A program made the translations under genes and the position numbers. A DNA stretch of 64,000 nt from NCBI GenBank assembly GCA_964535515.1, contig CAZHTA010000002.1, positions 684 through 64,683 of the forward strand, in the 5' to 3' direction. This document shows positions 3,559 through 29,557 of this stretch, in pieces. The number at the start of each line of letters is the position of its first letter. Position 1 is the first letter of the stretch. Under the pieces are notes generated by a model. It ran no database searches, was not told the DNA's origin, and saw only the letters and a list, made by a program, of their open reading frames with translations. Source of the DNA: an uncultured Gammaproteobacteria bacterium (GTDB taxonomy: Bacteria; Patescibacteriota; Patescibacteriia; Magasanikbacterales; GWA2-37-8).

Positions 3559-6500
3559 ATGCCTATTCGAAGAATAATAAGGGGGAAGATAAAAGCAGAA
3601 AAACCAACTAAACCGGTAGAAGAAAAAGAGGAAAAAATTGAGATTGAACCAGAAATAATAAAAGCTACAATAACCCATAAAGGAACTAAGGAAAGTAAAA
3701 CTTCCTCAGAATACAGCGCTAAGAATATTACGGTTTTGGAAGGATTAGAAGCGGTACGTCGCCGACCTGGCATGTATATTGGTTCTACTGGTCCAGCTGG
3801 TTTACACCATCTTATCTGGGAAGTTGTCGACAACTCAGTCGACGAAGCTATGGCTGGCCACTGCGATCGTATTGAAGTAACTCTGCTCCCCGACCACATG
3901 GTAGAAGTACGTGATAATGGTCGTGGTATCCCAGTTGATATCCACCCTCAACAAGGCGTAAGTGCCTTGGAAGTTATTTTAACCAAACTACATGCTGGTG
4001 GTAAATTTGGTAATGGTGGCTATAAAATTTCTGGCGGTTTGCACGGTGTAGGTGTTACAGTTGTAAACGCTCTCTCTTCTTACTTAAAAGCTGAGGTTCA
4101 CCTTGGTGGAAAAATTTGGGAACAAGAATACACAGCTGGTAATCCACAAAAAAAAGTTAGGGCCGTTGGTACTTGTAAAGATACAGGTACCACTATTACC
4201 TTCCGAGCCGATGACACTATTTTTGAAACAACTAATTATGAATGGAAGGCGATCGTTGACCACCTACGTCAATATGCTTACCTTTCTAAAGGATTACATT
4301 TCATAATCTCCGATAAACGTAGTCCAGAAGAAAAAGCCGTTGATAAAACAGCAATCAGTTTCCCTAATCCAACTTACCAGTTTTACTTTGAAGGTGGTGT
4401 GGCTTCTTATGTTCGTTATATCAATCACAACAAAGAAGCTAAAGGAGAAAACATCTTTTACGCTGACAAAGAAGCGGACGACGTTAATGTCGAAATTGCT
4501 TTACAGTACAGCGAGGATTACACTGAATCACTTTTTGCTTTTACCAACAATATTCATAATCCTGATGGCGGTACCCACGTTCAAGGTTTCCGCACTGCTC
4601 TAACACGCGTCTTAAACAGTTATGCTCGTAACAAAAATATTTTAAAAGAGAAAGACGCCAACCTAACCGGCGAAGACGTACGCGAGGGTTTGAATGCTGT
4701 CATTTCCATTAAAATACGCGAACCACAATTTGAAGGACAAACAAAATCCAAATTAGGCAATACTGAAGCTAAAACAGCAGTTGAAACAATCATGGGTGAA
4801 GAATTTACCATCTTCTTGGAAGAACATCCTAAGGATGCCGAGGCCATTATTGGTAAATGTTTACTCGCCAGCCGTGCTCGCAATGCTGCCAAAATCGCGC
4901 GTGATGCCATTTTGCGCAAAGGTGCTCTAGAAGGATTTACTCTACCAGGCAAACTAGCGGACTGCTCTTCGCGTGATGCTGAAATTTCTGAATTGTACAT
5001 TGTTGAGGGCGACAGTGCGGGCGGATGTTTTGATGGAAATACCAAAGTTGCGTTGACTGATGGACGTAGCTTGTCATTTATAAAATTAGCAGAAGAATGG
5101 GAACAAGGTAAAACAAACTACTGTTACACAATAAAAAACAATGGCGAAATTGGTATTGAAAAAATATTACACCCACGCATTACCAAGAAAAACGCCACCG
5201 TAATTAAAATCACACTAGATAATGATGAAGAATTGATTTGTACCCCAGATCACAAATTTATGTTACGTGACGGTAGTTACGTCCAAGCTAAAGATCTAAA
5301 ATCCGACATTAGCTTGATGCCTCTCTACCGAAAAACTTCTGTTATAGGAGGTCGTATTACAATAGATGGATACGAGATGGTTCTAAACACAAATAGTAGA
5401 TGGAAATTTACTCATCTTCTTGCTGACGAATATAATTTAACACAAAATGTATATCCTCAAATTGAGAACGGACATAAACATCACAAAGATTTTAATAAAC
5501 TGAACAACAACCCAGATAACATAATCCGTTTGTCTAAAGAAGACCATTTACAAATTCACCGCGAACAGGCGCACAAAACTCTCCATCGTCCAGATTCTAT
5601 TGCTAAATGTAACGAAATTAAACGTTCGGCAATTTATAGAAAAAAAATCTCCGACACGATGAAAAATCTTGGTCCGATGTTAAGTGCCCGAGCCAAAAAA
5701 CAATGGCAAAACGAGGAATATAAAAAATTCATGACGCATAAATTTTTGGAATTTTATAATAACAACGCTGAATACCGAGAAAAAAATAACGAGCTGTTAA
5801 ATAAAATACAAAAAGAGTATTGGGGCAACCTAAACAACCGGACAACACAAGCTGAGCGTGTTAAGGAATCTTTTAAGAACCACCCCGACAGAAAAAAATG
5901 GTTAAGTGAATTAGCAAAAAACCAGTGGAGCAGTGCCGAACTCTTAAATTGGCGCGCACAACAAACCACCAAACAATGGACACCTGAATTTCGCACTAAA
6001 CGTCAACAAGCTTACGCCAAAACATATCTTCAACACAGCTTGTCCTTCGCTAAAACACTAGCCGAACGTGGATTAAATTTCATTTCCACTTACAACCAAG
6101 AAAGAAGCGCTTTGCCAAAACGTAATAATAACATTGTAAAATTTGAAACATTATTAAATCGTTTTTTTGCTGGCGACCAAAATCGATTAGTCGAAGCAGT
6201 GAACAACTTCAACCATAAAATTGTCAGAATAGAAAAAGTCACCAAAAAAGTTGACGTATACGATATTGAGGTGCCACACACCCACAACTTCGCTCTAGCA
6301 AGTGGCATTTTCGTACACAACAGCGCCAAACAAGGCCGCAACCGCGAATTTCAAGCCATTCTCCCACTACGCGGTAAAGTATTAAACGTAGAACGCGCAC
6401 GTCTGGACAAGATCTTAGCTAACAACGAATTGAAATCTCTAATTATTGCAATCGGCACTAATATTGGTGAACAATTCGATATTACTAAGTTACGTTATCA

Positions 6501-7053
6501 TCGTATCATTATCATGACCGATGCGGACGTTGATGGTGCCCACATCCGTACTTTACTTTTAACTTTCTTTTACCGCCATTTCCCTGAACTAGTAAACAAT
6601 GGTCATATATATATTGCCCAACCACCACTTTACAGTGTTAAAACTGGTAAAGAAATAAAATATGCTTACAATGATGAAGAAAAAGAATTGCTCCTAGCCG
6701 AATTAAGTAAAAACAAATCTGCTAAGGCTGAAGCAAAACAGAAAAAAGAAGAAGCTGAGGAAGAAGTACCAGCTGAAGAAAACGGTGAAGAAGGCGGAGA
6801 TGCCCAAGCTGAGTCAATTTTAGTGGGTGGAGTAAAAGTTAACATCCAACGTTACAAAGGTTTGGGAGAAATGAACCCGGAACAACTCTGGGAAACTACG
6901 ATGAATCCAGAAAAACGTTTGATGAAACAAGTAACAGTAGAAGACGCCGGACTAGCTAATGAAACCTTTGAAATTTTAATGGGCGAAGATGTCGAGCAAA
7001 GAAAAAAATTCATCCAGACCAACGCCAAATCCGTAAGTAATTTGGATGTATAA
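3559..7053 (+). CDS. gyrB: DNA gyrase subunit B, interrupted in-frame by an intein (extein plus intein = 1164 aa); about 45-aa N-terminal extension
   Basis: GHKL ATPase motifs (LEGLEAVRRRPGMYIGS, GLHHLIWEVVDNSVDE), the TOPRIM motif EGDSAGG split from SAKQGRNREFQAILPLRGKVLNVE, and the C-terminal tail. Confidence 0.9.
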   Translation: MPIRRIIRGKIKAEKPTKPVEEKEEKIEIEPEIIKATITHKGTKESKTSSEYSAKNITVLEGLEAVRRRPGMYIGSTGPAGLHHLIWEVVDNSVDEAMAGHCDRIEVTLLPDHMVEVRDNGRGIPVDIHPQQGVSALEVILTKLHAGGKFGNGGYKISGGLHGVGVTVVNALSSYLKAEVHLGGKIWEQEYTAGNPQKKVRAVGTCKDTGTTITFRADDTIFETTNYEWKAIVDHLRQYAYLSKGLHFIISDKRSPEEKAVDKTAISFPNPTYQFYFEGGVASYVRYINHNKEAKGENIFYADKEADDVNVEIALQYSEDYTESLFAFTNNIHNPDGGTHVQGFRTALTRVLNSYARNKNILKEKDANLTGEDVREGLNAVISIKIREPQFEGQTKSKLGNTEAKTAVETIMGEEFTIFLEEHPKDAEAIIGKCLLASRARNAAKIARDAILRKGALEGFTLPGKLADCSSRDAEISELYIVEGDSAGGCFDGNTKVALTDGRSLSFIKLAEEWEQGKTNYCYTIKNNGEIGIEKILHPRITKKNATVIKITLDNDEELICTPDHKFMLRDGSYVQAKDLKSDISLMPLYRKTSVIGGRITIDGYEMVLNTNSRWKFTHLLADEYNLTQNVYPQIENGHKHHKDFNKLNNNPDNIIRLSKEDHLQIHREQAHKTLHRPDSIAKCNEIKRSAIYRKKISDTMKNLGPMLSARAKKQWQNEEYKKFMTHKFLEFYNNNAEYREKNNELLNKIQKEYWGNLNNRTTQAERVKESFKNHPDRKKWLSELAKNQWSSAELLNWRAQQTTKQWTPEFRTKRQQAYAKTYLQHSLSFAKTLAERGLNFISTYNQERSALPKRNNNIVKFETLLNRFFAGDQNRLVEAVNNFNHKIVRIEKVTKKVDVYDIEVPHTHNFALASGIFVHNSAKQGRNREFQAILPLRGKVLNVERARLDKILANNELKSLIIAIGTNIGEQFDITKLRYHRIIIMTDADVDGAHIRTLLLTFFYRHFPELVNNGHIYIAQPPLYSVKTGKEIKYAYNDEEKELLLAELSKNKSAKAEAKQKKEEAEEEVPAEENGEEGGDAQAESILVGGVKVNIQRYKGLGEMNPEQLWETTMNPEKRLMKQVTVEDAGLANETFEILMGEDVEQRKKFIQTNAKSVSNLDV
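5026..6321 (+). other. intein (432 aa) inside gyrB with HNH-type homing endonuclease domain
   Basis: Starts with Cys directly after GDSAGG. Block B TPDH. Ends VHN followed by extein Ser (SAKQGR). Internal NGHKHHKDFNKLNNNPDNIIRLSKEDHLQIH resembles an HNH motif. Frame verified (5026-3559 and 6322-3559 both divisible by 3). Confidence 0.8.
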
Positions 7054-7090
7054 GAAACAATTAAACATAATAAAAAACCACCTCGCAAAA

Positions 7091-7122
7091 GATGGTTTTT
7101 TATTTCCTTCTATTTTGAACTA
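7091..7122 (+). terminator. intrinsic terminator after gyrB (AACCACC...GATGGTT then T6)
   Basis: Hairpin with one G-U pair followed by a T-run. Confidence 0.5.
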
Positions 7123-7180
7123 ATTCAAAACAAAAGGGACTTGGCGGTCCAGCTGTGCCCGTAAAGGGAGCTGGACCGCC
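7122..7180 (-). terminator. intrinsic terminator for minus-strand GC-rich operon (12-bp GGCGGTCCAGCT/AGCTGGACCGCC stem then T-run on minus strand)
   Basis: Perfect 12-bp inverted repeat at 7143-7180; the minus strand continues as aagtcccttttgtttt. Confidence 0.55.
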
Positions 7181-7264
7181 GAGATAGGAATGACGAGACG
7201 AACGACTCACCCCGATCATCCGACAGCCGCGAAGGCCGAGCAGACGAATCGAGGGGTGTGACGT

Positions 7265-7750
7265 TTAGTTTAGATCGGGGAGATCGAAAAGGCCGAGGAG
7301 CACACCGAATCCGTAAGCGACCCCATTGGTGACAATGGCGGCGCATAACCCCCACCAGATGGCCTCGAGGAAGTATCCGCACGAGAACCATGCGGAGTAG
7401 TCCTTCCCGTCTCCAGCCGCGAGCGCCCAGCGCCACCCATAGTTAGCGGCGAGGAGATGGAGCAACACCGCAACCACAGTGACCACCACCGCCAACGGCC
7501 GGCGGGCGTCGCTGTCCAAGTTGCTGCGGAGGACCAGTGCCCAAACAACCAGGGACACCACTGGCCCGATTGCGAAGGCCATGACCACGCCGAACCAATC
7601 GACTCCATCCAGCTTCGCGCTGCACCAGACGGAATCATCGTACCCGCCACCACCGGCCAACGCAAGGCCGGGGAGAAGGAACATTACCGTGAAGGCCACG
7701 GCGACCATCGACACCAGCAAGCAGGTTTTCCAGGACCTGTTCAAGTTCAC
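7265..7750 (-). CDS. small integral membrane protein (about 4 TM), GC-rich, holin-like by size and topology
   Basis: ORF track. Hydrophobic segments. ATGA start/stop overlap with the upstream CHAP gene (translational coupling). High-GC codon usage. Confidence 0.55.
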   Translation of the reverse strand: MNLNRSWKTCLLVSMVAVAFTVMFLLPGLALAGGGGYDDSVWCSAKLDGVDWFGVVMAFAIGPVVSLVVWALVLRSNLDSDARRPLAVVVTVVAVLLHLLAANYGWRWALAAGDGKDYSAWFSCGYFLEAIWWGLCAAIVTNGVAYGFGVLLGLFDLPDLN

Positions 7751-9159
7751 CTCCTAGACCAGCCCACGCAGGGCAAGTCTTCGATTGTTCCGCGAACCCA
7801 CCAGAACCCTCCGACGAATTCCTGGAGGGTGGCGCACTCGTACCAGCGTGAGGTATTTTGCTGAACGACACACACGGCATCGTCCTTCACCTCAACGACA
7901 ATCGCGACATGCCCAGGGGCACGATGGCTGTTAGCCGCCACACTCTCCCGACCGTCACGATCAAAGATCAGGATATCATTCACCGCCGGCTTCACCGGCG
8001 AACCGTTCAGGAGCACCGACAAGCCCTTAGCGTTTCCGCTATAGAAATAGCTGTCAGCGTGACCGGTGCGCTCCATGTTCCTATGACCCAGGACGGTGGC
8101 GTAGAACCGATTGACCAGCTCCACACACTGCCACCGTTGGCCATAGCCAGACCGCTCCGATTCACCTTCACCGCGGGGGTGCTGATGAATCTCCGCCCCA
8201 CGATAAAGGCCAACGACCGCTCCCTGCTCCGCTTTGATACCAGGCGGAACAAGGACCACCACACCATTCTTGTCTCCGATACGTGGGAACTGCTCCCCAC
8301 GACCAAAGATAAACGACATGACGGTATCGGTGTAATACCCGAACCGACCGTTGCCGGCCAATCCGAGCCACCCACTTGCCTCCCCGAAGGTCGGCCGATA
8401 GTGAGTGAACACCGACGCGGCACTCGACTTTTCCTCATTGTCCATCTGGATGCCCGAGAGCTCCCAGATGTAAACGAGATCGAAGCCAAGCAACGATATA
8501 TCGGACAATTTTTCCACCCGGAACGGATCCGTGCCGAAGCGCTTACCGTTCAAGTGAAAAAAGTGATAACCCCACCACTCGCCCTGATACTCGAAAGCCA
8601 GAACGAGGTGTGTGTTGATTCCAGCCTTTGCCGCAAGAACTTGCGGGTCCATGCGACTCTGCTGAAAGTGATAGCCGGCCACGTAAAGCCGACTCGAGGA
8701 CAACACCTTGGAGAGATCACTGTCGAACGGGACCAATTCCTTAATCTTGTCCTCAGTTGAGGTTGAGAAATCCTTGGTCCGATCAAAAACTTTGCGGAGG
8801 TCGTCCGCATTGTCCTGACCGAACCGCCAAGCCACCGTCACCTCGAGCTTTTGTCTGCCCAAAATGAAGTTAGCAGCCTGGATCACGGCCGAAGCGCAAC
8901 GCTCGTTGTCCCACATCGACTGCGGGATAAACGCCGGCACCGGGCCGTTACCCGGACGGTCCACAAGACTATCCAGGAGTGATCGCACTTCTACCGGTGC
9001 GCGCGGGCTAAGGGGGAACTTACTCCCCCATTCTTCTTCCACATGGTGACGAGCCACGCAGAAGATCGTTACGAGAACCATCACGACCGAAGTCGCAAAA
9101 ATCCCCGTCACAAAAATCGCGTTGCGCACTCGTCTGCGCTCGGTCCGGCTCAGTCTCAC
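7747..9159 (-). CDS. membrane-anchored protein with C-terminal CHAP-domain peptidoglycan amidase/peptidase, GC-rich (GTG start)
   Basis: N-terminal TM (IFVTGIFATSVVMVLVTIFCV). C-terminal QCVELVNRFY...GHVAIVVEV matches the CHAP catalytic Cys/His pattern. GAGGTGA SD before GTG. About 60% GC by eye. Confidence 0.6.
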   Translation of the reverse strand: MRLSRTERRRVRNAIFVTGIFATSVVMVLVTIFCVARHHVEEEWGSKFPLSPRAPVEVRSLLDSLVDRPGNGPVPAFIPQSMWDNERCASAVIQAANFILGRQKLEVTVAWRFGQDNADDLRKVFDRTKDFSTSTEDKIKELVPFDSDLSKVLSSSRLYVAGYHFQQSRMDPQVLAAKAGINTHLVLAFEYQGEWWGYHFFHLNGKRFGTDPFRVEKLSDISLLGFDLVYIWELSGIQMDNEEKSSAASVFTHYRPTFGEASGWLGLAGNGRFGYYTDTVMSFIFGRGEQFPRIGDKNGVVVLVPPGIKAEQGAVVGLYRGAEIHQHPRGEGESERSGYGQRWQCVELVNRFYATVLGHRNMERTGHADSYFYSGNAKGLSVLLNGSPVKPAVNDILIFDRDGRESVAANSHRAPGHVAIVVEVKDDAVCVVQQNTSRWYECATLQEFVGGFWWVRGTIEDLPCVGWSRR

Positions 9160-21605: not shown

Positions 21606-23564
21606 ATGAATTGGAAAGTACTTTTTTCACGCTTTAAAAAACCGGACCACACTGTCACCCGGAAAAATTTGGATAGTAAATTAATCAAAAGAATTAATTT
21701 ACGCCAATTACCTAAATTATCACAATTAAAATACGTGGGAAGTTTTTTAAGTACCGTAGAAAAAAAGGTAGTAATTGGCGGTTTAATTGTTTCCCTAGTC
21801 GGTTTACTCGGTTGGACAACAGTCTTTTTGTCACGCCACTATGAACGTGCGCCTAAAGTTGGCGGCGAATATATCGAGGGTCTTATTGGACAACCAAAAT
21901 ATATTAACCCAATCTTTTCTACTACTAATGATGTTGACGCTGACATTGTCGGATTAGTCTACGCTGGATTATTTAAATACAGTAAAGAAGGTACAATCGA
22001 ATCAGAACTAGCCGAAAGCTATGAACTGAGCAAAGATAAAAAAACCTATACCGTAAAATTAAAACCAAATTTAAAATGGCCTGATGGCCAACCAATTACC
22101 GGCCAAGATGTATCATATACTTTTGAAACTATCCAAAACCCAGAAGTAGGCAGCCCGCTATTTGCTGCCATGCAAGGAGTAAAAATTGAAACACCGGATG
22201 AACTAACAATTAGTTTTACTCTTAAAGAATCCTTTTCTCCTTTCTTGGGTGTATTAACTACCGGAATATTACCAAGTCATCTTTGGTCAGAAATTCCACC
22301 CGCTAGTATAAAACTAGCTAAACTAAATTCCCAACCCGTTGGCGCTGGTGTTTGGAAATTTTCTAAATTAATAAAAGACGAAGGAGGAAATATCCAAACT
22401 TTAACACTTGCTCCCAACGATCTGTATTACGGGCAACACCCATACCTAAAAATTATTACTTTCAAATTTTATAATAACTACACCGAAGCAATTAACGGCT
22501 TACGCGGACAAAACATTAATGGCATTGCCTTTGTTCCACAAAAATTAAAAGATAAAGTAGGAGGAAAAAATATTAACCTCTATGAATTTACTTTACCTCA
22601 ATACAGCGCAATGTTTTTTAACCAAAATCAATCTACTGAACTAAAAGATAAAGACTTACGTTTGGCTCTAAATTTAGCAATTGATAAAGAAAGAATCATC
22701 CGTGAAGCACTAGATGGTGCCGGGGTAACGATCGACTCTCCGATTTTACCAGGCATGCTTGGATATGACGCAACCATTAAAGATGCTGAATTTAATCCTG
22801 AGTTAGCAAACAAAACATTAGATAAAAAATGGACACGTATTCAACCGGAAGAATACTTTAGTATCAAACAAACAGTCGAATTAAAAAACTACCAAACTGA
22901 AATTGAAGAAGTAAAAAAGAACGCTAGTTCTACTCCTGAAATGGTTTCTTCTACCTTAGAAAAAATTACTAACGATGCAAAACGTACGGTACGCCAGACC
23001 ATGGATGCCGGACAATCATTCTACCGCAAAGATAGTAAAGGTAACATTCTGGCTCTAACCATTACCACTGCTGATACTCCAGAATATTTAAAAACCGCTC
23101 AAACAATTGCGACTTTCTGGCGAGCGTTAGGTATCCAAACCAATATTCAATCTCTTAGTGGATACCAACTAAACAAAGACATTGTCCGTGATCGCAATTA
23201 CCAAATCTTTTTGTATGGTGAAATTGTTGGTGCGGATCCTGACCCATATTCTTTCTGGCATTCTTCACAAGGAGATTACCCTGGCATGAATTTAGCAATG
23301 TTTTCTGATCGCAATGCTGATAAAGTTTTAGAAGAAGCCCGTACTACTTTCTCTAGCGCTGACCGAGTAAAATTGTATAAAAAATTCCAAGAAATAGTAA
23401 CGGCTGAGATCCCAGCAATATTTCTTTATACCCCCAAACATTTAATGGCTATTAGCCAAGATATCAAGGGAGCCAGAATAGAAAACCCTACAACCCCCGC
23501 TAATCGCTTCCAATATCTAAGCGAGTGGTACACTAAAACCACTTGGCGTTGGAAGAGCAACTAA
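21606..23564 (+). CDS. ABC transporter substrate-binding protein, family 5 (oligopeptide/nickel type), membrane-anchored
   Basis: N-terminal TM anchor then SBP_bac_5-like body (KYINPIFSTTNDVDADIVGLVYAGLFKY, PDGQPITGQDVSYTFE). Confidence 0.7.
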   Translation: MNWKVLFSRFKKPDHTVTRKNLDSKLIKRINLRQLPKLSQLKYVGSFLSTVEKKVVIGGLIVSLVGLLGWTTVFLSRHYERAPKVGGEYIEGLIGQPKYINPIFSTTNDVDADIVGLVYAGLFKYSKEGTIESELAESYELSKDKKTYTVKLKPNLKWPDGQPITGQDVSYTFETIQNPEVGSPLFAAMQGVKIETPDELTISFTLKESFSPFLGVLTTGILPSHLWSEIPPASIKLAKLNSQPVGAGVWKFSKLIKDEGGNIQTLTLAPNDLYYGQHPYLKIITFKFYNNYTEAINGLRGQNINGIAFVPQKLKDKVGGKNINLYEFTLPQYSAMFFNQNQSTELKDKDLRLALNLAIDKERIIREALDGAGVTIDSPILPGMLGYDATIKDAEFNPELANKTLDKKWTRIQPEEYFSIKQTVELKNYQTEIEEVKKNASSTPEMVSSTLEKITNDAKRTVRQTMDAGQSFYRKDSKGNILALTITTADTPEYLKTAQTIATFWRALGIQTNIQSLSGYQLNKDIVRDRNYQIFLYGEIVGADPDPYSFWHSSQGDYPGMNLAMFSDRNADKVLEEARTTFSSADRVKLYKKFQEIVTAEIPAIFLYTPKHLMAISQDIKGARIENPTTPANRFQYLSEWYTKTTWRWKSN

Positions 23565-23589
23565 AGCAATTTAAGTTTTAAAAAATCTC

Positions 23590-23674
23590 GGGCAAGTGGC
23601 GGAATTGGTATACGCGTACGTCTCAGAAGCGTATGGGGAAACCCACAGGAGTTCGACTCTCCTCTTGCCCACCA
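23590..23674 (+). tRNA. tRNA-Leu (anticodon CAG), class II with long variable arm, CCA encoded
   Basis: Hand fold: acceptor GGGCAAG/CUUGCCC, anticodon loop cuCAGaa, long variable arm, T-arm GGAG-UUCGACU-CUCC, 3' ACCA present. Confidence 0.7.
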
Positions 23675-23746
23675 AATTTATCTCTCGACCAGTCGAGATG
23701 AGAGAAAAATCTTCTTTTATTTATTTTATTTAATTCATAAAAAATT

Positions 23747-25528
23747 ATGATTACAACTAACACGCAACGTGAACCGAAAAAAACTTTCGGAACACGTCAA
23801 AATACTCGCGCCCCGCAAAGGCGCACTAACTATCAACCCTCTTTTTCTCGTTTCCGAAACGATGACACCAAATTAAAAGTTATGGTCGTCGGCGGATTAG
23901 AAGAAGTTGGGCGTAACTGTACCTTCTTGGAATACAATAATGACATTATCATTATTGACATGGGATTACAATTCCCAGAAGAAGACATGCCTGGTATTGA
24001 TTACATCATCCCTAACATGGGATACCTAAAAGGCAAAGAAAAAAATATCCGTGGCGTAATTATCACCCATGCTCATTACGACCACATCGGTGGTATCCCC
24101 CATCTTATCCCAATGCTTGGCTATCCTCCGATCTATGGCTTACCATTAACTAACGCCATCATCAAAAAAAGACAAGAGGACTACAAAGGATTAAAGCCGC
24201 TTAACATTCACAATCTAAAAATTGAAGACAAACTAAGGCTCGGTAGTTTTGAAGTAGAATTTTTCCACTTAAACCACAACATTCCCGATACTATGGGTGT
24301 GGTAATTAATACTCCAGAAGGAACAGTGGTCCATACGGGTGACTGGAAATTCGACTATCAACCTGTCGCTGGTGATCAACCCGCTGACTTACAAAGAATC
24401 GCCCAAATCGGTGCTAAAGGAGTAATGGCCCTTTTGACTGACTCAACTAATGCTTCCCAGCCTGGCCATCAAATGTCTGAATCAGAAATCGGAACAAACT
24501 TAGATGACATTATCGCCAAAGCTCCTGGCCGATTGATTATTGGCACCTTTGCTTCTCTGCTCTCGCGTATTAAACAAATTGTTGATATTGCAGAAAAAAC
24601 TGGCAAAGTTGTGGCGCTCGACGGTTACTCAATGAAAAACAACGTTGAAATTGCTAAAGAATTGGGATACATGAAATTTCATCCCAAAACTTTTGTTGAC
24701 TTAACCAAAGTGAAAGATTATCCCGACGACAAAGTCATCATCATCTGTACAGGTGCCCAAGGAGAAAAAACTGCTTCTTTGATGCGTATCGCTAATGGCG
24801 AACATCGCATAATTAACTTAAGCAAAGGTGACACAGTCGTATTCTCTTCTTCTGTTATCCCAGGTAACGAACGCACAGTACAACGTTTAAAAGACACGCT
24901 GTTTAGAAAAGGTGCCAATGTTATCCATTATCAAATGATGGACGTTCATGCTGGTGGCCACGCCAAAGCAGATGACGTTAAATTAATGATCCGTCTTTTG
25001 AATCCAAAATATTTTGTACCAATCGAAGGCAACCACTTCTTGCTACATTACAACGCACGTGTTGCTGAATCAATTGGCTTTGATAAAGAAAAGATTTTTA
25101 TCGCTGACAATGGACAGGTAATGGAATTCAAAGCCGGTGTTGGAAAACTAACCAAAGAAAAAATTCCCGCTGACTATGTATTCGTTGACGGCTTAGGCGT
25201 GTCCGATGAAACCAACGTGGTTTTGCGCGATCGCCAAGTTTTAGCCGAAGATGGAATGGTTGTGGTAATTGTTACGGTTGATTCTAAAACTGGAAAATTA
25301 ATCCAAAACCCTGACATCATTTCCCGTGGTTTTGTCTTCCTAAAAGAGCACAAAGAACTAATCGAAGACTTACGTCACCGTGTCAAAAAAACCGTTGTCG
25401 ATTCTGACCCACTATCTTGGGCAGACACCAACAATATCCGCAACAAAATCCGTGACTATGTTGGCCAATTCCTGTTTACCAAGACAGAAAAAAGACCAAT
25501 GATTTTACCAGTGGTGATTGAAGTGTAA
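23747..25528 (+). CDS. rnj: ribonuclease J (metallo-beta-lactamase/beta-CASP RNase)
   Basis: HAHYDHIGG and DGTVVHTGDWKFD motifs; Arg-rich about 40-aa N-terminal extension. Confidence 0.85.
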   Translation: MITTNTQREPKKTFGTRQNTRAPQRRTNYQPSFSRFRNDDTKLKVMVVGGLEEVGRNCTFLEYNNDIIIIDMGLQFPEEDMPGIDYIIPNMGYLKGKEKNIRGVIITHAHYDHIGGIPHLIPMLGYPPIYGLPLTNAIIKKRQEDYKGLKPLNIHNLKIEDKLRLGSFEVEFFHLNHNIPDTMGVVINTPEGTVVHTGDWKFDYQPVAGDQPADLQRIAQIGAKGVMALLTDSTNASQPGHQMSESEIGTNLDDIIAKAPGRLIIGTFASLLSRIKQIVDIAEKTGKVVALDGYSMKNNVEIAKELGYMKFHPKTFVDLTKVKDYPDDKVIIICTGAQGEKTASLMRIANGEHRIINLSKGDTVVFSSSVIPGNERTVQRLKDTLFRKGANVIHYQMMDVHAGGHAKADDVKLMIRLLNPKYFVPIEGNHFLLHYNARVAESIGFDKEKIFIADNGQVMEFKAGVGKLTKEKIPADYVFVDGLGVSDETNVVLRDRQVLAEDGMVVVIVTVDSKTGKLIQNPDIISRGFVFLKEHKELIEDLRHRVKKTVVDSDPLSWADTNNIRNKIRDYVGQFLFTKTEKRPMILPVVIEV

Positions 25529-25573
25529 AAAACAAAATTTGACAAAAAACTACCCTTACGGTAAATTAAAGAT

Positions 25574-25633
25574 ATGAACAAAATCCACTTACAATTAAAC
25601 GCTTGGTGGACTGCTCCTAACTGCGGGCAGTGA
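25574..25633 (+). CDS. trp leader peptide (19 aa, MNKIHLQLNAWWTAPNCGQ) with tandem Trp codons
   Basis: Small ORF read directly; the UGG-UGG pair sits immediately before overlapping antiterminator/terminator alternatives upstream of trpB. Confidence 0.5.
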   Translation: MNKIHLQLNAWWTAPNCGQ

Positions 25634-25661
25634 TTTTGATTTTTTAATTTACTTTCACTAA

Positions 25662-25687
25662 CTGCCCGCTGTGGGCAGTTTTTGTTT
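25662..25687 (+). terminator. attenuator terminator (CUGCCC-gcugu-GGGCAG then T5GT3) in trpB leader
   Basis: Perfect 6-bp GC stem plus T-run. Upstream segment GCGGGCAGTGA (25623-25633) can alternatively pair with TCACT-AA-CTGCCCGC (25656-25670) as an antiterminator. Confidence 0.55.
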
Positions 25688-25794
25688 ATCTAAAAATTCT
25701 ATGAAATCACTCTATCACAATTACTCACGATTTAGCTGGCAAAAGATTAATACCGGGTGACTTTTATATTATTCAATATTCTAATTTTAAACAT

Positions 25795-27003
25795 ATGAAC
25801 TCACAAACAATTAACTACAAAACACTACCTAACACCGAAGGATACTTCGGTGAATATGGCGGACAATTAGTTCCGCCCCAACTCAAACCCGCTTTAGATG
25901 AAGTGGCGAAAGCCTACGAAGAAGCAAAAAATGATCCAACCTTCCAAAAAGAATATGAAGATCTCTTAAAGAATTATGTTGGCCGGCCGTCACCTCTCTA
26001 CTTCGCCAAAAACCTAACAGCCAAACTTGGTGGAGCCAAAATATATCTAAAACGTGAAGACCTAAATCACACGGGCGCACACAAAATAAACCACACATTA
26101 GGTGAGGCACTTCTCGCTAAACGTATGGGTAAGAAAAAACTCTTAGCGGAAACTGGTGCTGGACAACATGGTGTAGCACTAGCAACTGCCGCAGCAATAG
26201 TTGGACTAGAATGTGAAATACACATGGGCGCAATCGACGTAGCTAAACAACATCCTAATGTTATAAGGATGAAGCTGCTCGGAGCAACAGTAGTAGAAGT
26301 AACTACTGGCGGACGTTGTTTAAAAGATGCTGTAGACAGTGCCTTTGGCGTATACATGCAAGACTACAAAAACGTCTTCTTCGCAATTGGCTCGGTGGTT
26401 GGTCCTCATCCCTACCCTCAAATGGTACGCGATTTCCAATCAATCGTTGGCAAAGAAGCCAAGGAACAAATATTGGAACTAGAAAAACGTTTACCTGATT
26501 ATCTCATCGCTTGCGTTGGTGGCGGTTCTAACGCTATCGGACTATTTAATGAATTCCTAAACGACGAACAGGTAAAAATGATTGGTGTTGAACCAGCAGG
26601 AAAAAGTTTCAAACCTGGTGAACACGCCGCCACACTCACTTTAGGCACACCTGGCGCTATCCACGGAATGATGACTTATCTTTTACAAGACGACAAAGGC
26701 GAACCACTACCCGTACACTCAATTGCTTCCGGCCTTGACTACCCTGGTGTTGGCCCAGAACATTCTTATCTCAAAGATACGGGCAGAGTTGAATATACCA
26801 ATGCGAACGATGAAGACGCACTAAAAGCATTTTTGGAACTTTCAAAAGTTGAAGGTATTATCCCAGCACTAGAAAGTTCACATGCTATCGCCCAAGCGAT
26901 AAAATTTGCACCCACACTAGATAAAGACAAAATAATTATTGTTAACCTATCTGGTCGAGGCGACAAAGATGTCGATTACGTGGCGGAAAAATTAGGTATG
27001 TAA
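25795..27003 (+). CDS. trpB: tryptophan synthase beta chain (TrpB1 type), apparently solitary
   Basis: PLP-lysine motif [27 protein letters not shown]-terminal motif. No trpA or other trp genes adjacent. Confidence 0.9.
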
Positions 27004-27014
27004 TATAAACAAAA

Positions 27015-27048
27015 ATACCTCCGAAAAAAACTCGGAGGTATTTTATTT
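27015..27048 (+). terminator. intrinsic terminator after trpB (ACCTCCG-aaaaaaa-CGGAGGT then T-run)
   Basis: Read directly. Confidence 0.55.
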
Positions 27049-27162
27049 CTTGTTCCAAGACCTCCACAACAGTAAAAATTTTACTGCTCTGGAGGTTCGG
27101 TCTTGAAACAGGTGTAGTGCCTGAGAAAGGCGGCGTGCGAATGCACAACCGAACCGACGGGA

Positions 27163-27504
27163 CTAGCCCTCAGAGAAGACCACATCATACTCATCCACGT
27201 CACGATCAGGGATGTCGAAGAAGGCGATGGTCTCCGAGAACAGCCGCTTCAAGGTGAAACGGTCGCTGGACAAGACCGGCTCCCAGTTCAACAGCGAAAA
27301 AGTGGTCGTCCTCCTGAACCGATAATCGCTGTCATGATGCCAACGCAGAGTCAGGCCCGCCGGATCAAACCCTGACCCACCCTCCACTCGACCGCTGCTT
27401 ATCGTCCCATCGGAGCGATACCCAACGATCCTGGCACGAAGCGCGAGATCATCTTCGTGCTCTTCGCAAAACCTGCGCACTTCCCCCCAAGTGGACATCT
27501 CCAT
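27163..27504 (-). CDS. hypothetical protein (113 aa), GC-rich island C
   Basis: ORF track. GC-rich codons unlike neighbours. No TM and no recognisable domain. Confidence 0.45.
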   Translation of the reverse strand: MEMSTWGEVRRFCEEHEDDLALRARIVGYRSDGTISSGRVEGGSGFDPAGLTLRWHHDSDYRFRRTTTFSLLNWEPVLSSDRFTLKRLFSETIAFFDIPDRDVDEYDVVFSEG

Positions 27505-27641
27505 GCCCCCTTCTACGGTTGCATTAACAATTCCACCCTAACAAAAAAATGGGGGGGGGGTGTCAACTACCCATACCACCCTCTTTGCTCTTATTCCTTT
27601 TCTTCTGTATAATATTGATAGTTAAGTTAATTTAAAAAAAT

Positions 27642-28676
27642 ATGCCCAAAACAAAAAAATTACACGTCGTCTTCTATGGCATCTGGCCAGAGATGAAAGA
27701 ATATATCCGTTCTCATATGAGCGGCTTTGGTTGCTCAATTTTAGAAGAAAAAGATATTACGGAAAAAAATATTAAAAAAGACACTGACGTATTAGTGGTA
27801 TTTGTTGAATCCCCAGTCACCAAAAAAACCATTGCCCAAATGCCTAACTTAAAAATGATCGCCACCATGAGTACTGGTTATGACCACATCGACACCAAAG
27901 CTGCCAAAGCAAAAAAAATCCCAGTATGCACTGTCCCTTTCTATGGCGAAAATACCGTCGCCGAACATGCTCTCGCTTTAATACTAGGATTAACACGTAA
28001 ACTCTTTCAGTCAGTTAAAAGAGTAAAAGAAGGTGTATATGATTATCATGGTCTACGCGGAGTTGATTTAAAAGGAAAAACTTTAGGTGTAATCGGTACC
28101 GGCCGCATTGGCATTCATTTGATTCGCATGGCTAAAGGGTTAGAAATGAATGTGATCGGTTACGATCCATACCCAAACAAAGATGTGGCCGAAGAGATGG
28201 GCTTTACTTATACTACCTTAGATAAACTTCTCGCCACCTCTGATGTAATTAGTTTACATGTTCCTCTTTTCCCTGAGACATATCACATGATAAACAAAAA
28301 AAATATTAAGAAAGTCAAAAAAGGCGCTTACATTATCAACACTGCACGCGGTGGTTTAATTGACCCAGAAGCATTAGTCTGGGCTTTACAAAAAGAACAA
28401 ATTTCCGGTGCTGGCCTAGATGTTTTAGAAGACGAAGGATTTGTCCAAGAGGAAGACAAGTTCCTCTCTGGTGGGTGCACTGAGTGTCAGATCAAAACTA
28501 ATTTGATGAACAACATAATCATTGATCATCCTAATACGATCGTAACTCCTCACAACGCATTCAATAGTACTGAGGCTTTACAAAGAATAATCGATACGAC
28601 TATTGAGAACATCCGTTCATTTGCTAAAGGCGAAATAAAAAACGACGCCACCGCACCTAAGCCAAAGAAAAAATAG
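27642..28676 (+). CDS. D-isomer-specific 2-hydroxyacid dehydrogenase family (NAD-binding)
   Basis: Rossmann motif GVIGTGRIGIHLIRMA and the catalytic Arg/Glu/His arrangement typical of D-LDH/PGDH-like enzymes. Confidence 0.75.
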   Translation: MPKTKKLHVVFYGIWPEMKEYIRSHMSGFGCSILEEKDITEKNIKKDTDVLVVFVESPVTKKTIAQMPNLKMIATMSTGYDHIDTKAAKAKKIPVCTVPFYGENTVAEHALALILGLTRKLFQSVKRVKEGVYDYHGLRGVDLKGKTLGVIGTGRIGIHLIRMAKGLEMNVIGYDPYPNKDVAEEMGFTYTTLDKLLATSDVISLHVPLFPETYHMINKKNIKKVKKGAYIINTARGGLIDPEALVWALQKEQISGAGLDVLEDEGFVQEEDKFLSGGCTECQIKTNLMNNIIIDHPNTIVTPHNAFNSTEALQRIIDTTIENIRSFAKGEIKNDATAPKPKKK

Positions 28677-28774
28677 ACAGAAAAACACAAAAAATCCCCA
28701 TAAAATATGGGGATTTTTGATATCCAACCTTGACAAGCACTAAATTTTATGATACTCTAAATTTGTTCATTATT

Positions 28775-29115
28775 GGTAATCGCCCCAACCTAGTTGGGAG
28801 AGGAAAGTCCGAACATCTTCCAATGCAAATTGGAAAAAAGGATAGTGGGTAACACCCACCCCCCGATCCGCAAGGTACCGGGGCGGGAAAGCGGCACAGA
28901 GACTATACTATCCCGGCTTACCCGGGAGAAAGGTGAAAAGCGCATGGGGGTTTTGGTTCTAGATCAAAGCTACTATGCCCCATCCACAGCAATGTGGAAT
29001 GGTGCCAAGCCCTATCTGATGCAAGAGCAGCCTTGTGACTGGAATACCTAGTCGCTTGGAAAAGTTCGCTCGCAATGATTCTGATGGTAACATCAGGACT
29101 AGATAAATGATTACC
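28775..29115 (+). ncRNA. rnpB: RNase P RNA (bacterial type)
   Basis: P4 signature GAGGAAAGUCCGAACA near the 5' end and CCCGGCUUACCCGGG further on. P1 formed by GGUAAUC (28775-28781) with GAUUACC (29109-29115). Promoter-like TTGACA at about 28731. The overlapping 85-aa ORF is spurious. Confidence 0.7.
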
Positions 29116-29230
29116 TCCTGTTAAAAAGACTTAGGCCAAAATATACTGAAAAATCCAATACGCGGAAAGTATCAGTGTAATATGGTTCGGTCTTACAACA
29201 GAAGACAAAATTCGGCTTATAATAATGAAC

Positions 29231-29263
29231 AACAAAAATCCCGATTTATTCGGGATTTTTGTT
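29231..29263. terminator. bidirectional intrinsic terminator (AAAAATCCCGA-ttta-TTCGGGATTTTTG)
   Basis: Near-copy of the rplS/uvrA terminator motif; overlaps the stop codon of the minus-strand ORF 29246-29557. Confidence 0.5.
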
Positions 29264-29557
29264 TAACATACTTTTTATCCTTTCTCCTTCTCTCTCCACC
29301 ACATCACCGTCTTTTTCTCCCGCATGTGCTTTTACCCCGGCATAGACTGGAGCGCGCTGATCTAAATGCAAATCAAACGACCAATTTTCTCCTTTGTCTT
29401 CAATGTATACATGAAACCTAGGATACAACATCGTTCGATCGGGGTGGCGCGTGTAACTCTTACCCCCACCATGGCGATCTACTTTTAAACCATAGCCACA
29501 ACGACGAATATATTGCTCAGAATCAGGTACCTGACTTTTTGGTAATAATATTTTCAT
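29246..29557 (-). CDS. hypothetical protein (103 aa)
   Basis: ORF track. Moderately elevated GC. No recognised domain. Confidence 0.4.
   Translation of the reverse strand: MKILLPKSQVPDSEQYIRRCGYGLKVDRHGGGKSYTRHPDRTMLYPRFHVYIEDKGENWSFDLHLDQRAPVYAGVKAHAGEKDGDVVEREGERIKSMLNKNPE

Follow-up and report, generated by a model that had tools for sequence, protein, structure and literature searches.

A probable leader-peptide attenuator, predicted to be leaderless, and a second conserved small open reading frame precede a stand-alone trpB gene in Patescibacteria

The trpL leader of Escherichia coli controls trpEDCBA with a short open reading frame (ORF) that carries tandem UGG codons, with alternative 1:2, 2:3 and 3:4 pairings and with an intrinsic terminator before the first structural gene; its stop codon lies in or beside region 2, and charged tRNA-Trp is sensed through the position of the ribosome. 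The same architecture was found ahead of a stand-alone trpB gene at 25539-25794 of a 64,000-nucleotide stretch of DNA from contig CAZHTA010000002.1 (hereafter the window), which belongs to an uncultured member of the Patescibacteria or Candidate Phyla Radiation (CPR), and charged tRNA-Trp would be sensed there in the same way. This segment is very probably a transcription attenuator that, like E. coli trpL, works through a ribosome translating a leader peptide. The CPR leader is not detectably homologous to trpL; unlike trpL, it has no Shine-Dalgarno (SD) sequence and apparently no 5' untranslated region (UTR), and it precedes a single trpB, with a second conserved small ORF (uORF2) past the terminator.

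Leaderless leader peptides have been reported in other bacteria, with 14 predicted in Deinococcus deserti (PMC4007540) and further examples in the mycobacterial cysteine attenuators (10.1101/834739). The attenuators of Deinococcus deserti, Corynebacterium and Mycobacterium share with the predicted arrangement in the window a transcription start site that falls on the AUG of a short ORF in which the sensed amino acid abounds, and their leaderless leader ORFs likewise precede biosynthesis or tRNA-synthetase genes. Those organisms have leaderless mRNAs genome-wide, whereas the corresponding geometry was found in 0/45 other genes of the window, the start is a predicted one and the host belongs to a different phylum. 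The trpRBA operon of Chlamydia trachomatis shares other traits, namely a reduced genome, Trp-responsive control and the retention of the last step or steps of Trp synthesis for indole salvage, a role that is proposed here as well; in some CPR relatives (L083, L093, L096, L018 and L165 of the comparative set described below) it also shares a linked TrpR-family repressor gene. Chlamydia is reported to have no functional TrpL-type cis-attenuation: the annotated TrpL is atypical and unvalidated, and YtgR acts in trans (PMC7755916). The CPR locus, unlike trpRBA, has a textbook cis-attenuator, and trpA is absent from the window and the flanks that were searched.

The elements of the switch were read directly from the sequence and followed up with promoter, hairpin and folding analyses (coordinates in Table 1). 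An earlier note on this DNA, made from the letters alone, had described a 19-codon ORF with tandem UGG codons and a promoter ending 6 nt ahead of its ATG. Both were recovered by direct reading, and the promoter scan ranked TTGACA-17-TAAATT, at 10/12, as the top plus-strand site within 23000-29500. The ORF, uORF1, is the only intergenic short ORF of the window with tandem UGG codons and the look of a leader peptide, and the whole leader up to the terminator is only ~110 nt long. A hairpin scan returned the terminator at 25660-25680, followed by TTTGTTTATC / UUUUUGUUU, together with a 1:2 hairpin at 25610-25631. Folded separately, the 1:2 hairpin reached -10.0 kcal/mol (z -1.7), the 2:3 antiterminator -18.3 kcal/mol (z -5.8) and the 3:4 terminator -13.1 kcal/mol (z -4.05), with 0/200 shuffles as good for either of the last two, and the complete leader folded at -38.6 kcal/mol (z -5.8). 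The mutually exclusive 2:3 and 3:4 pairings that the note had proposed are thus both far more stable than shuffled sequences.

The switch would operate as follows. A sigma-70-type promoter would start the RNA at the A of the leader AUG, and a 70S ribosome would load on this leaderless 5'-AUG. With ample charged tRNA-Trp, the ribosome would clear UGG UGG, reach the UGA and cover region 2, so that the 3:4 terminator forms and transcription stops at ~25685. With charged tRNA-Trp scarce, it would stall on the UGG codons and cover region 1, leaving region 2 free to pair with region 3 as the antiterminator; no terminator would form and RNA polymerase would read on. The read-through RNA would carry uORF2 first, whose translation may act in cis through its nascent chain and its single Trp codon and so subject trpB expression to a further Trp-linked check in an organism without SD sites. 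TrpB would then make tryptophan from imported indole and serine.

Comparison with related trpB loci carried most of the weight. The closest TrpB relatives, at 72-89% identity, come from metagenome-assembled genomes of Patescibacteria, Paceibacterota and Saccharibacteria (GTDB genomes and JGI metagenomes), which marks the window as part of a CPR-type genome. Nearly all CPR relatives have a short tandem-Trp ORF ahead of trpB, for example MKIFCLKLNAWWTAS, MLKKGSYMNIAWWTAHICG, MKNNKLQLISTWWEADIF and MKILPVKVNLSWWSAHYCRR. The comparative set comprised 32 distinct related Patescibacteria trpB loci with a leader ORF (loci are labelled L0xx), and the classic trp attenuation layout recognised in the earlier note recurs ahead of trpB in all of them. 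Counted from the ATG, the first W codon falls at nt 30 or 33 and the leader stop at nt 45-63 (nt 75 in L096); a U-run hairpin, present in 32/32 loci, ends at ~nt 100-121. uORF1 always has one W, and 23/27 loci have the second as well.

The stems themselves differ in sequence between clades while the logic of their complementarity is kept. In the window, region 2 GCGGGCAGU and region 3 ACUGCCCGC are followed by region 4 GGGCAGU; the L013 clade has region 2 GUGGG(UAGUC), region 3 (GAC)AACCCAC and region 4 GUGGG, L007 has CACGGG, CCCGUG and ACGGG, and L010 has GGCGGC, GCCGCC and GGCGG. In 25/32 loci the 2:3 duplex beat shuffled sequences (z<-2). With few exceptions, region 2 spans the leader stop codon, at -7 to +15 relative to the stop. 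RNAalifold, run on 13 genome loci, picked the antiterminator helix independently: 92% of its cells were paired, 4/6 pairs had changed on both sides in a compensatory manner, and the covariation score was reached by 0/500 shuffles, while slid controls paired at 31-47%. This by-column covariation comes from just 13 sequences and one testable 6-bp helix; only the antiterminator helix was counted, because MAFFT had set the 3' arms of the terminators out of register (alignment A1).

The positional logic was evaluated by folding the nascent leader with the ribosome footprint masked, placing either the last UGG or the stop codon in the A site. In this thermodynamic model, masking at the W codons abolished the terminator in 29/32 loci, and masking at the stop codon gave a formed terminator in 31/32; the window itself changed from 0/8 terminator pairs with the ribosome stalled at W to 8/8 with the ribosome at the stop. 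The loss and the gain are those that the Yanofsky model of trpL demands of the ribosome-mediated switch that the note had put forward.

The promoter geometry points to a leaderless uORF1. The register TTGnnn-17-TAnnnT-6-ATG aligned without gaps in 13/13 genome loci, and among the 32 distinct loci a TANNNT ended exactly 6 nt before the ATG in 24, 22 of which also had a TTG -35 box at a distance of 16-18 nt; any other spacing between -10 box and ATG (0 to 15) accounted for at most seven loci each. The register is kept even though the upstream genes differ between loci. Start sites usually lie 7 nt from the -10 box, so the 6-nt spacing would place the first transcribed base at the A of the AUG, and the uORF1 mRNA is probably leaderless, with a predicted start at A25574, as the earlier note had suspected. 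None of the 45 other genes of the window shows the -35/-10/6-nt/ATG geometry, so that the leaderless arrangement seems peculiar to the leader peptide; several of these genes have sigma-70-like promoter sites 20-31 nt upstream instead, which would imply short unstructured 5' UTRs. The attenuator might still be genuine on a leadered mRNA, with uORF1 translated independently of an SD site from rnj read-through transcripts or from transcripts of another promoter. The genome is almost without SD motifs at the 45 gene starts of the window, which makes the missing SD before uORF1, uORF2 and trpB uninformative, and SD-based arguments were dropped. No terminator was found between the end of rnj (25528) and the uORF1 promoter in the terminator scan, and eight loci (L081, L083, L085, L087, L090, L091, L018 and L109), some of them directly behind a TrpR-like gene, have no -10 box at 6 nt. 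A leadered mRNA is nevertheless an improbable account, given the 6-nt peak, the persistence of the promoter register behind differing upstream genes and the placing of promoter-like sites 20-31 nt upstream at other genes of the window.

Two further readings would dispense with the attenuator altogether. A T-box or another ligand- or tRNA-binding riboswitch, with the WW ORF incidental, draws some support from GGUGGACUGC, which the earlier note found vaguely like a T-box core before dismissing the idea, and from a weak T-box-like match before trpB in the related locus L012. That dismissal held: at gathering thresholds, Rfam returned only RNase P and tRNAs from the whole window and no T-box or riboswitch, and a permissive scan of 25450-25850 at E<=10 yielded no T-box (RF00230) and no riboswitch, its top matches being spurious rRNA, miRNA and snoRNA hits. 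With a leader this short, and with the ORF and the positions of its W codons and stop kept across the 32 loci, a riboswitch is extremely improbable. The U-tract hairpin could alternatively be a plain terminator of the RNase J gene, ~130 nt upstream on the same strand, with the WW ORF and the alternative pairing arising by chance and trpB expressed from a constitutive promoter. In relatives, the unit of leader, terminator and trpB sits behind unrelated upstream genes, compensatory changes are seen in the 2:3 pairing, rnj and uORF1 are separated by the promoter, and the promoter scan found no plus-strand promoter-like site from 25688 to 25795; there is hardly any room for such a coincidence. The T-box-like leader of L012, a Saccharibacteria-labelled locus, spans 3738-3962 (24.5 bits, E 0.0016, below gathering) with a AAAUAGGGUGGCACCACG core; it replaces the WW leader, and uORF2 is kept.

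Table 1. Features of the trpB locus in the window.
Feature	Position	Strand	Basis and remarks
-35 box TTGACA	25539..25544	+	Read directly and by promoter scan; TTGnnn in the same register in 22 related loci
-10 box TAAATT	25562..25567	+	17 nt past the -35 box, 6 nt (AAAGAT) ahead of the leader ATG
uORF1, trp leader peptide MNKIHLQLNAWWTAPNCGQ, then stop	25574..25633	+	19 codons; transcription is predicted to start at A25574
Tandem Trp codons UGG UGG (regulatory; codons 11-12 of uORF1)	25604..25609	+	Direct reading
Region 1 ACUGCUC	25610..25616	+	Partner of region 2; would be under a ribosome stalled at the Trp codons
Region 2 GCGGGCAGUGA	25623..25633	+	Overlaps the leader stop codon; antiterminator 5' arm
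Region 3 UCACUAACUGCCCGC	25655..25669	+	Antiterminator 3' arm and terminator 5' arm
Region 4 GGGCAGUU plus U-tract UUUUUGUUUAU	25673..25688	+	Intrinsic terminator hairpin 25660-25680
uORF2	25701..25760	+	ATG 25701, TGA 25760; 19 residues; single Trp codon 25737-25739; between terminator and trpB
trpB (tryptophan synthase beta, 402 aa; regulated gene)	25795..27003	+	PALP domain, TIGR00263
Bidirectional terminator hairpin closing the trpB transcription unit	27012..27044	both strands	13-14 pairs each

The small ORF between terminator and trpB had been overlooked in the earlier note. Two kinds of described leader come close to uORF2. The rtpA (anti-TRAP) operon of Bacillus subtilis, according to what Chen and Yanofsky reportedly described in 2003, combines a T-box with the leader peptide rtpLP. 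It shares with the CPR locus a transcriptional sensor followed by a short Trp-codon ORF just before the structural gene, and L012, with its T-box-like leader and uORF2, has its parts in the same order as rtpA. The ribosome terminating on rtpLP is said to mask the rtpA SD, and the sequence of the rtpLP peptide is said not to be conserved; uORF2, by contrast, has a conserved peptide, a variable stop position and a host without SD sites. The TnaC, SpeFL and Erm leaders share with uORF2 a short upstream ORF with conservation of amino acids over about the last 11 residues before a defined point, and TnaC in particular also has an invariant Trp and a place before a gene of tryptophan or indole metabolism. 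The TnaC pattern is W12-D16-P24. uORF2 bears no sequence resemblance to it, ribosome stalling on uORF2 is only proposed, and the gene that it would regulate makes Trp instead of degrading it.

Counterparts of uORF2 were found in 30 distinct related loci, for example MNKFIFKQHCTEFWR, MKYYFYNRATYYWRCKS and MKKFIYHNLATFYWRGN, each ending in a stop, and MRTRSYFRKPGVYYWRQ, which continues further. In an alignment anchored on the Trp codon, every locus has this Trp (30/30) and the next codon is CGN in 27 loci and CAA in three (the W-R codons of the window are at 25737-25742); an Arg in this position is never encoded by AGR, which makes up 19-37% of Arg codons. The ten residues before the Trp follow the pattern aromatic-x-aromatic-x-[NQH]-x-[C/S/A/G]-T-x-aromatic. 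Mean entropies of 0.85/0.88/1.41 by codon position in this core reflect third-position wobble, and they rise to 1.56/1.56/1.76 just past W-R. The stop follows directly after W-R or up to ~30 codons on, so that tails measure 0 to 32 residues; some peptides have no more than 15 residues in all. At these loci all three codon positions vary far more across the N-terminal half of uORF1, so that recent common ancestry alone does not account for the conservation of uORF2. Conservation up to a fixed point thus takes place at the level of amino acids and not of RNA, as in arrest peptides, and uORF2 is likely to be a genuine conserved coding element.

The element is closely tied to trpB. The distance from the uORF2 W to the trpB ATG is 44-65 nt in 27/30 loci; the uORF2 stop overlaps the trpB start as ATGA in L081, L082, L009 and L090, and longer overlaps occur in L007, L093 and L161-L167. 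A loose motif pattern, derived from these same peptides, gave 21 matches in 1.49 Mb on both strands, all just upstream of trpB. A profile search of 5.8 billion proteins, made without trpB as an anchor, returned five small proteins, one of which was the query's own (L093); in three of the profile matches (seven loci; P0001 left out), a TrpB-homologous ORF overlaps the 3' end of the peptide. uORF2 also occurs behind the T-box-like leader of L012 and, without any uORF1, behind TrpR-family or other genes in L093 and L165-L167, and it is absent from L083, L096, L018 and L109, which have a WW leader and a TrpR-family gene, and from L087. Found with varied leaders, sometimes alone and sometimes missing, it is therefore a separable module tied to trpB. 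It may be a portable one that joins with leaderless WW attenuators, with a T-box-like leader or with repressors of the TrpR type.

Several other explanations of uORF2 were tried and rejected. An RNA structure joining uORF2 to the trpB start found no support, as the window RNA at 25701-25815 folded no better than shuffles (z +0.67) and the folds of relatives were weak and dissimilar. A second promoter that would make uORF2 leaderless was rejected for want of a consistent -10 box at a fixed spacing, and a frameshift or fusion into trpB because the distances from W to ATG fall in all three frames. A small hairpin opening at the W-R codons (GGCG), followed by a U-rich stretch, reached z<-1.5 in 16/30 loci; as a second terminator with the W-R codons as its 5' arm it was discarded, being clade-specific and missing from the window, L081, L082 and L006. 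Separately, L002 and L086 have an extra long structured spacer between uORF2 and trpB, with a CACCCyGUU ... AACrGGGU pairing that reaches the trpB start region, which may be an additional clade-specific RNA element.

Conservation of a peptide up to a set point is characteristic of sequences that act within the ribosome tunnel, and a nascent-peptide-assisted pause or arrest at the Trp-Arg of uORF2 is for this reason the preferred reading. Such a pause would affect trpB translation, coupling or mRNA stability, and may sense charged tRNA-Trp, free Trp or indole. It is conceivable, and put forward tentatively from the peptide alignments, that uORF2 and relatives such as MNKFIFKQHCTEFWR form a new regulatory nascent-peptide family specific to stand-alone Patescibacteria trpB. 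The peptide could also be something other than a cis-regulatory nascent chain. It might work as a free micropeptide with TrpB, for example by replacing the missing activation by TrpA, or the ORF might serve to reload ribosomes, its translation delivering them to the SD-less trpB start or shielding the mRNA from Rho or RNase J. Either variant would suit a conserved peptide that is tightly linked to trpB, sometimes overlapping its start, and a W that lies at a nearly constant distance from the trpB ATG. A micropeptide is hard to reconcile with conservation that stops abruptly at W-R, with tails of very different length and with peptides as short as those described above, and reloading alone would not conserve an 11-residue motif, so that these alternatives taken together appear rather unlikely.

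The regulated gene encodes a canonical TrpB1 (TIGR00263, 586.8 bits vs a cut-off of 392.45); the TrpB2-type model TIGR01415 gave 180 bits, below its cut-off of 519. Pfam scans found no other trp gene in the 64-kb window, and tblastn with Paenibacillus TrpE, TrpD, TrpC, TrpF and TrpA gave no match in the window or in 312 kb of flanks (at most 10 kb per flank) of 38 related loci. The claim that trpB stands alone, which the earlier note had made for its surroundings, accordingly holds over this range.

A number of observations weigh against the interpretation of the locus as a leaderless, trpL-like attenuator of an indole-salvage gene with a regulatory uORF2. The start at 25574 is a prediction from promoter geometry, and L081, the closest relative (89% TrpB identity), has no recognisable -10 box at the 6-nt spacing; as no terminator separates rnj from the promoter, read-through transcripts with a 5' leader are possible. 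uORF1 has a single Trp codon in four loci, and L081, L088 and L092 retain the terminator in the stalled-state fold. The ribosome-free minimum-energy fold of the window lacks the terminator (0/8 pairs), so that basal termination would depend on folding kinetics or on translation. The Rfam Trp_leader model RF00513 scored 16.4 bits at 25598-25686 (E 1.1) vs a gathering threshold of 41; the element works like trpL and is not a member of the proteobacterial RF00513 family. For uORF2, the W-R hairpin occurs in about half of the loci and is absent from the clade of the window, and the mechanism proposed from the peptide alignments is plausible but hypothetical throughout. Indole salvage, finally, is a proposed role, consistent with all local evidence from the window and the flanks of its relatives.

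Other forms of control were seen at related trpB loci. A Trp_repressor-family gene (PF01371) lies at or near trpB in L083, L093, L096, L018, L105, L109, L002, L086 and L165-L167, the copy in L093 scoring 76.5 bits; in L165-L167 it is accompanied by genes for a tRNA-synt_1b protein (Trp/Tyr-tRNA synthetase family), a transaldolase and an Asp/Glu racemase. In the window, no gene of this family was found close to trpB. Non-CPR members of the TrpB clade (Maridesulfovibrio, Desulfomicrobium and others: L030, L031, L034, L039, L045, L053, L057, L059, L075, L116, L117, L121 and L123) also have WW(W)R leader peptides ahead of trpB. Where inspected, in L030 and L045, these peptides are followed by terminators, and trpB is apparently solitary in L030. 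The combination of a WW(W)R leader and a terminator before an apparently solitary trpB in Desulfovibrionales suggests that the trpB-attenuator unit may have moved between phyla. A Carboxylicivirga locus (L028) has a single-W leader, MIELDSKYYWRNLNCI, and a terminator, and its trpB is also apparently solitary.

The genome has a GC content of ~40%. In the window, trpB is accompanied by genes for RNase J (23747-25528), an SBP_bac_5 solute-binding protein, a DsbA-like protein, a protein with a type IV secretion system (T4SS) pilin domain, UvrA and a 2-hydroxyacid dehydrogenase, and 90 nt downstream of the last of these lies a class-A bacterial RNase P RNA (28764-29235, 143.8 bits). Further ORFs encode NusG, L11, QueA, RecG, a ClpB/ClpC-type AAA+ chaperone (Clp_N, AAA_2 and ClpB_D2-small domains) and an intein-containing GyrB (3559-7053), whose Intein_splicing domain occupies residues 512-921 between the GyrB and Toprim domains. 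A GC-rich island at 7001-9000 (56% vs a background of ~39%), with a CHAP-domain ORF at 7747-9159 on the minus strand and overlapping GC-rich ORFs, is probably horizontally acquired DNA.

A search of the literature turned up no account of leader peptides or attenuation in Patescibacteria/CPR, nor of their use of leaderless mRNAs or SD sites, and the attenuator on this stand-alone trpB, leaderless as predicted, would be the first described for the CPR. A textbook attenuator implies tight coupling of transcription and translation in uncultivated, reduced-genome bacteria with unusual ribosomes, and probable initiation on a leaderless mRNA at this locus. That related loci have trpB downstream of WW attenuators, of a T-box-like leader or of TrpR-family genes shows strong and repeated selection for Trp-responsive control, and the close regulation of a lone trpB points to indole cross-feeding as a real nutritional route. 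In uORF2 the locus offers a definite candidate for a regulatory nascent peptide of a new kind, and together uORF1 and uORF2 may constitute a two-tier sensor in organisms that have minimal ribosomes and lack SD sites.

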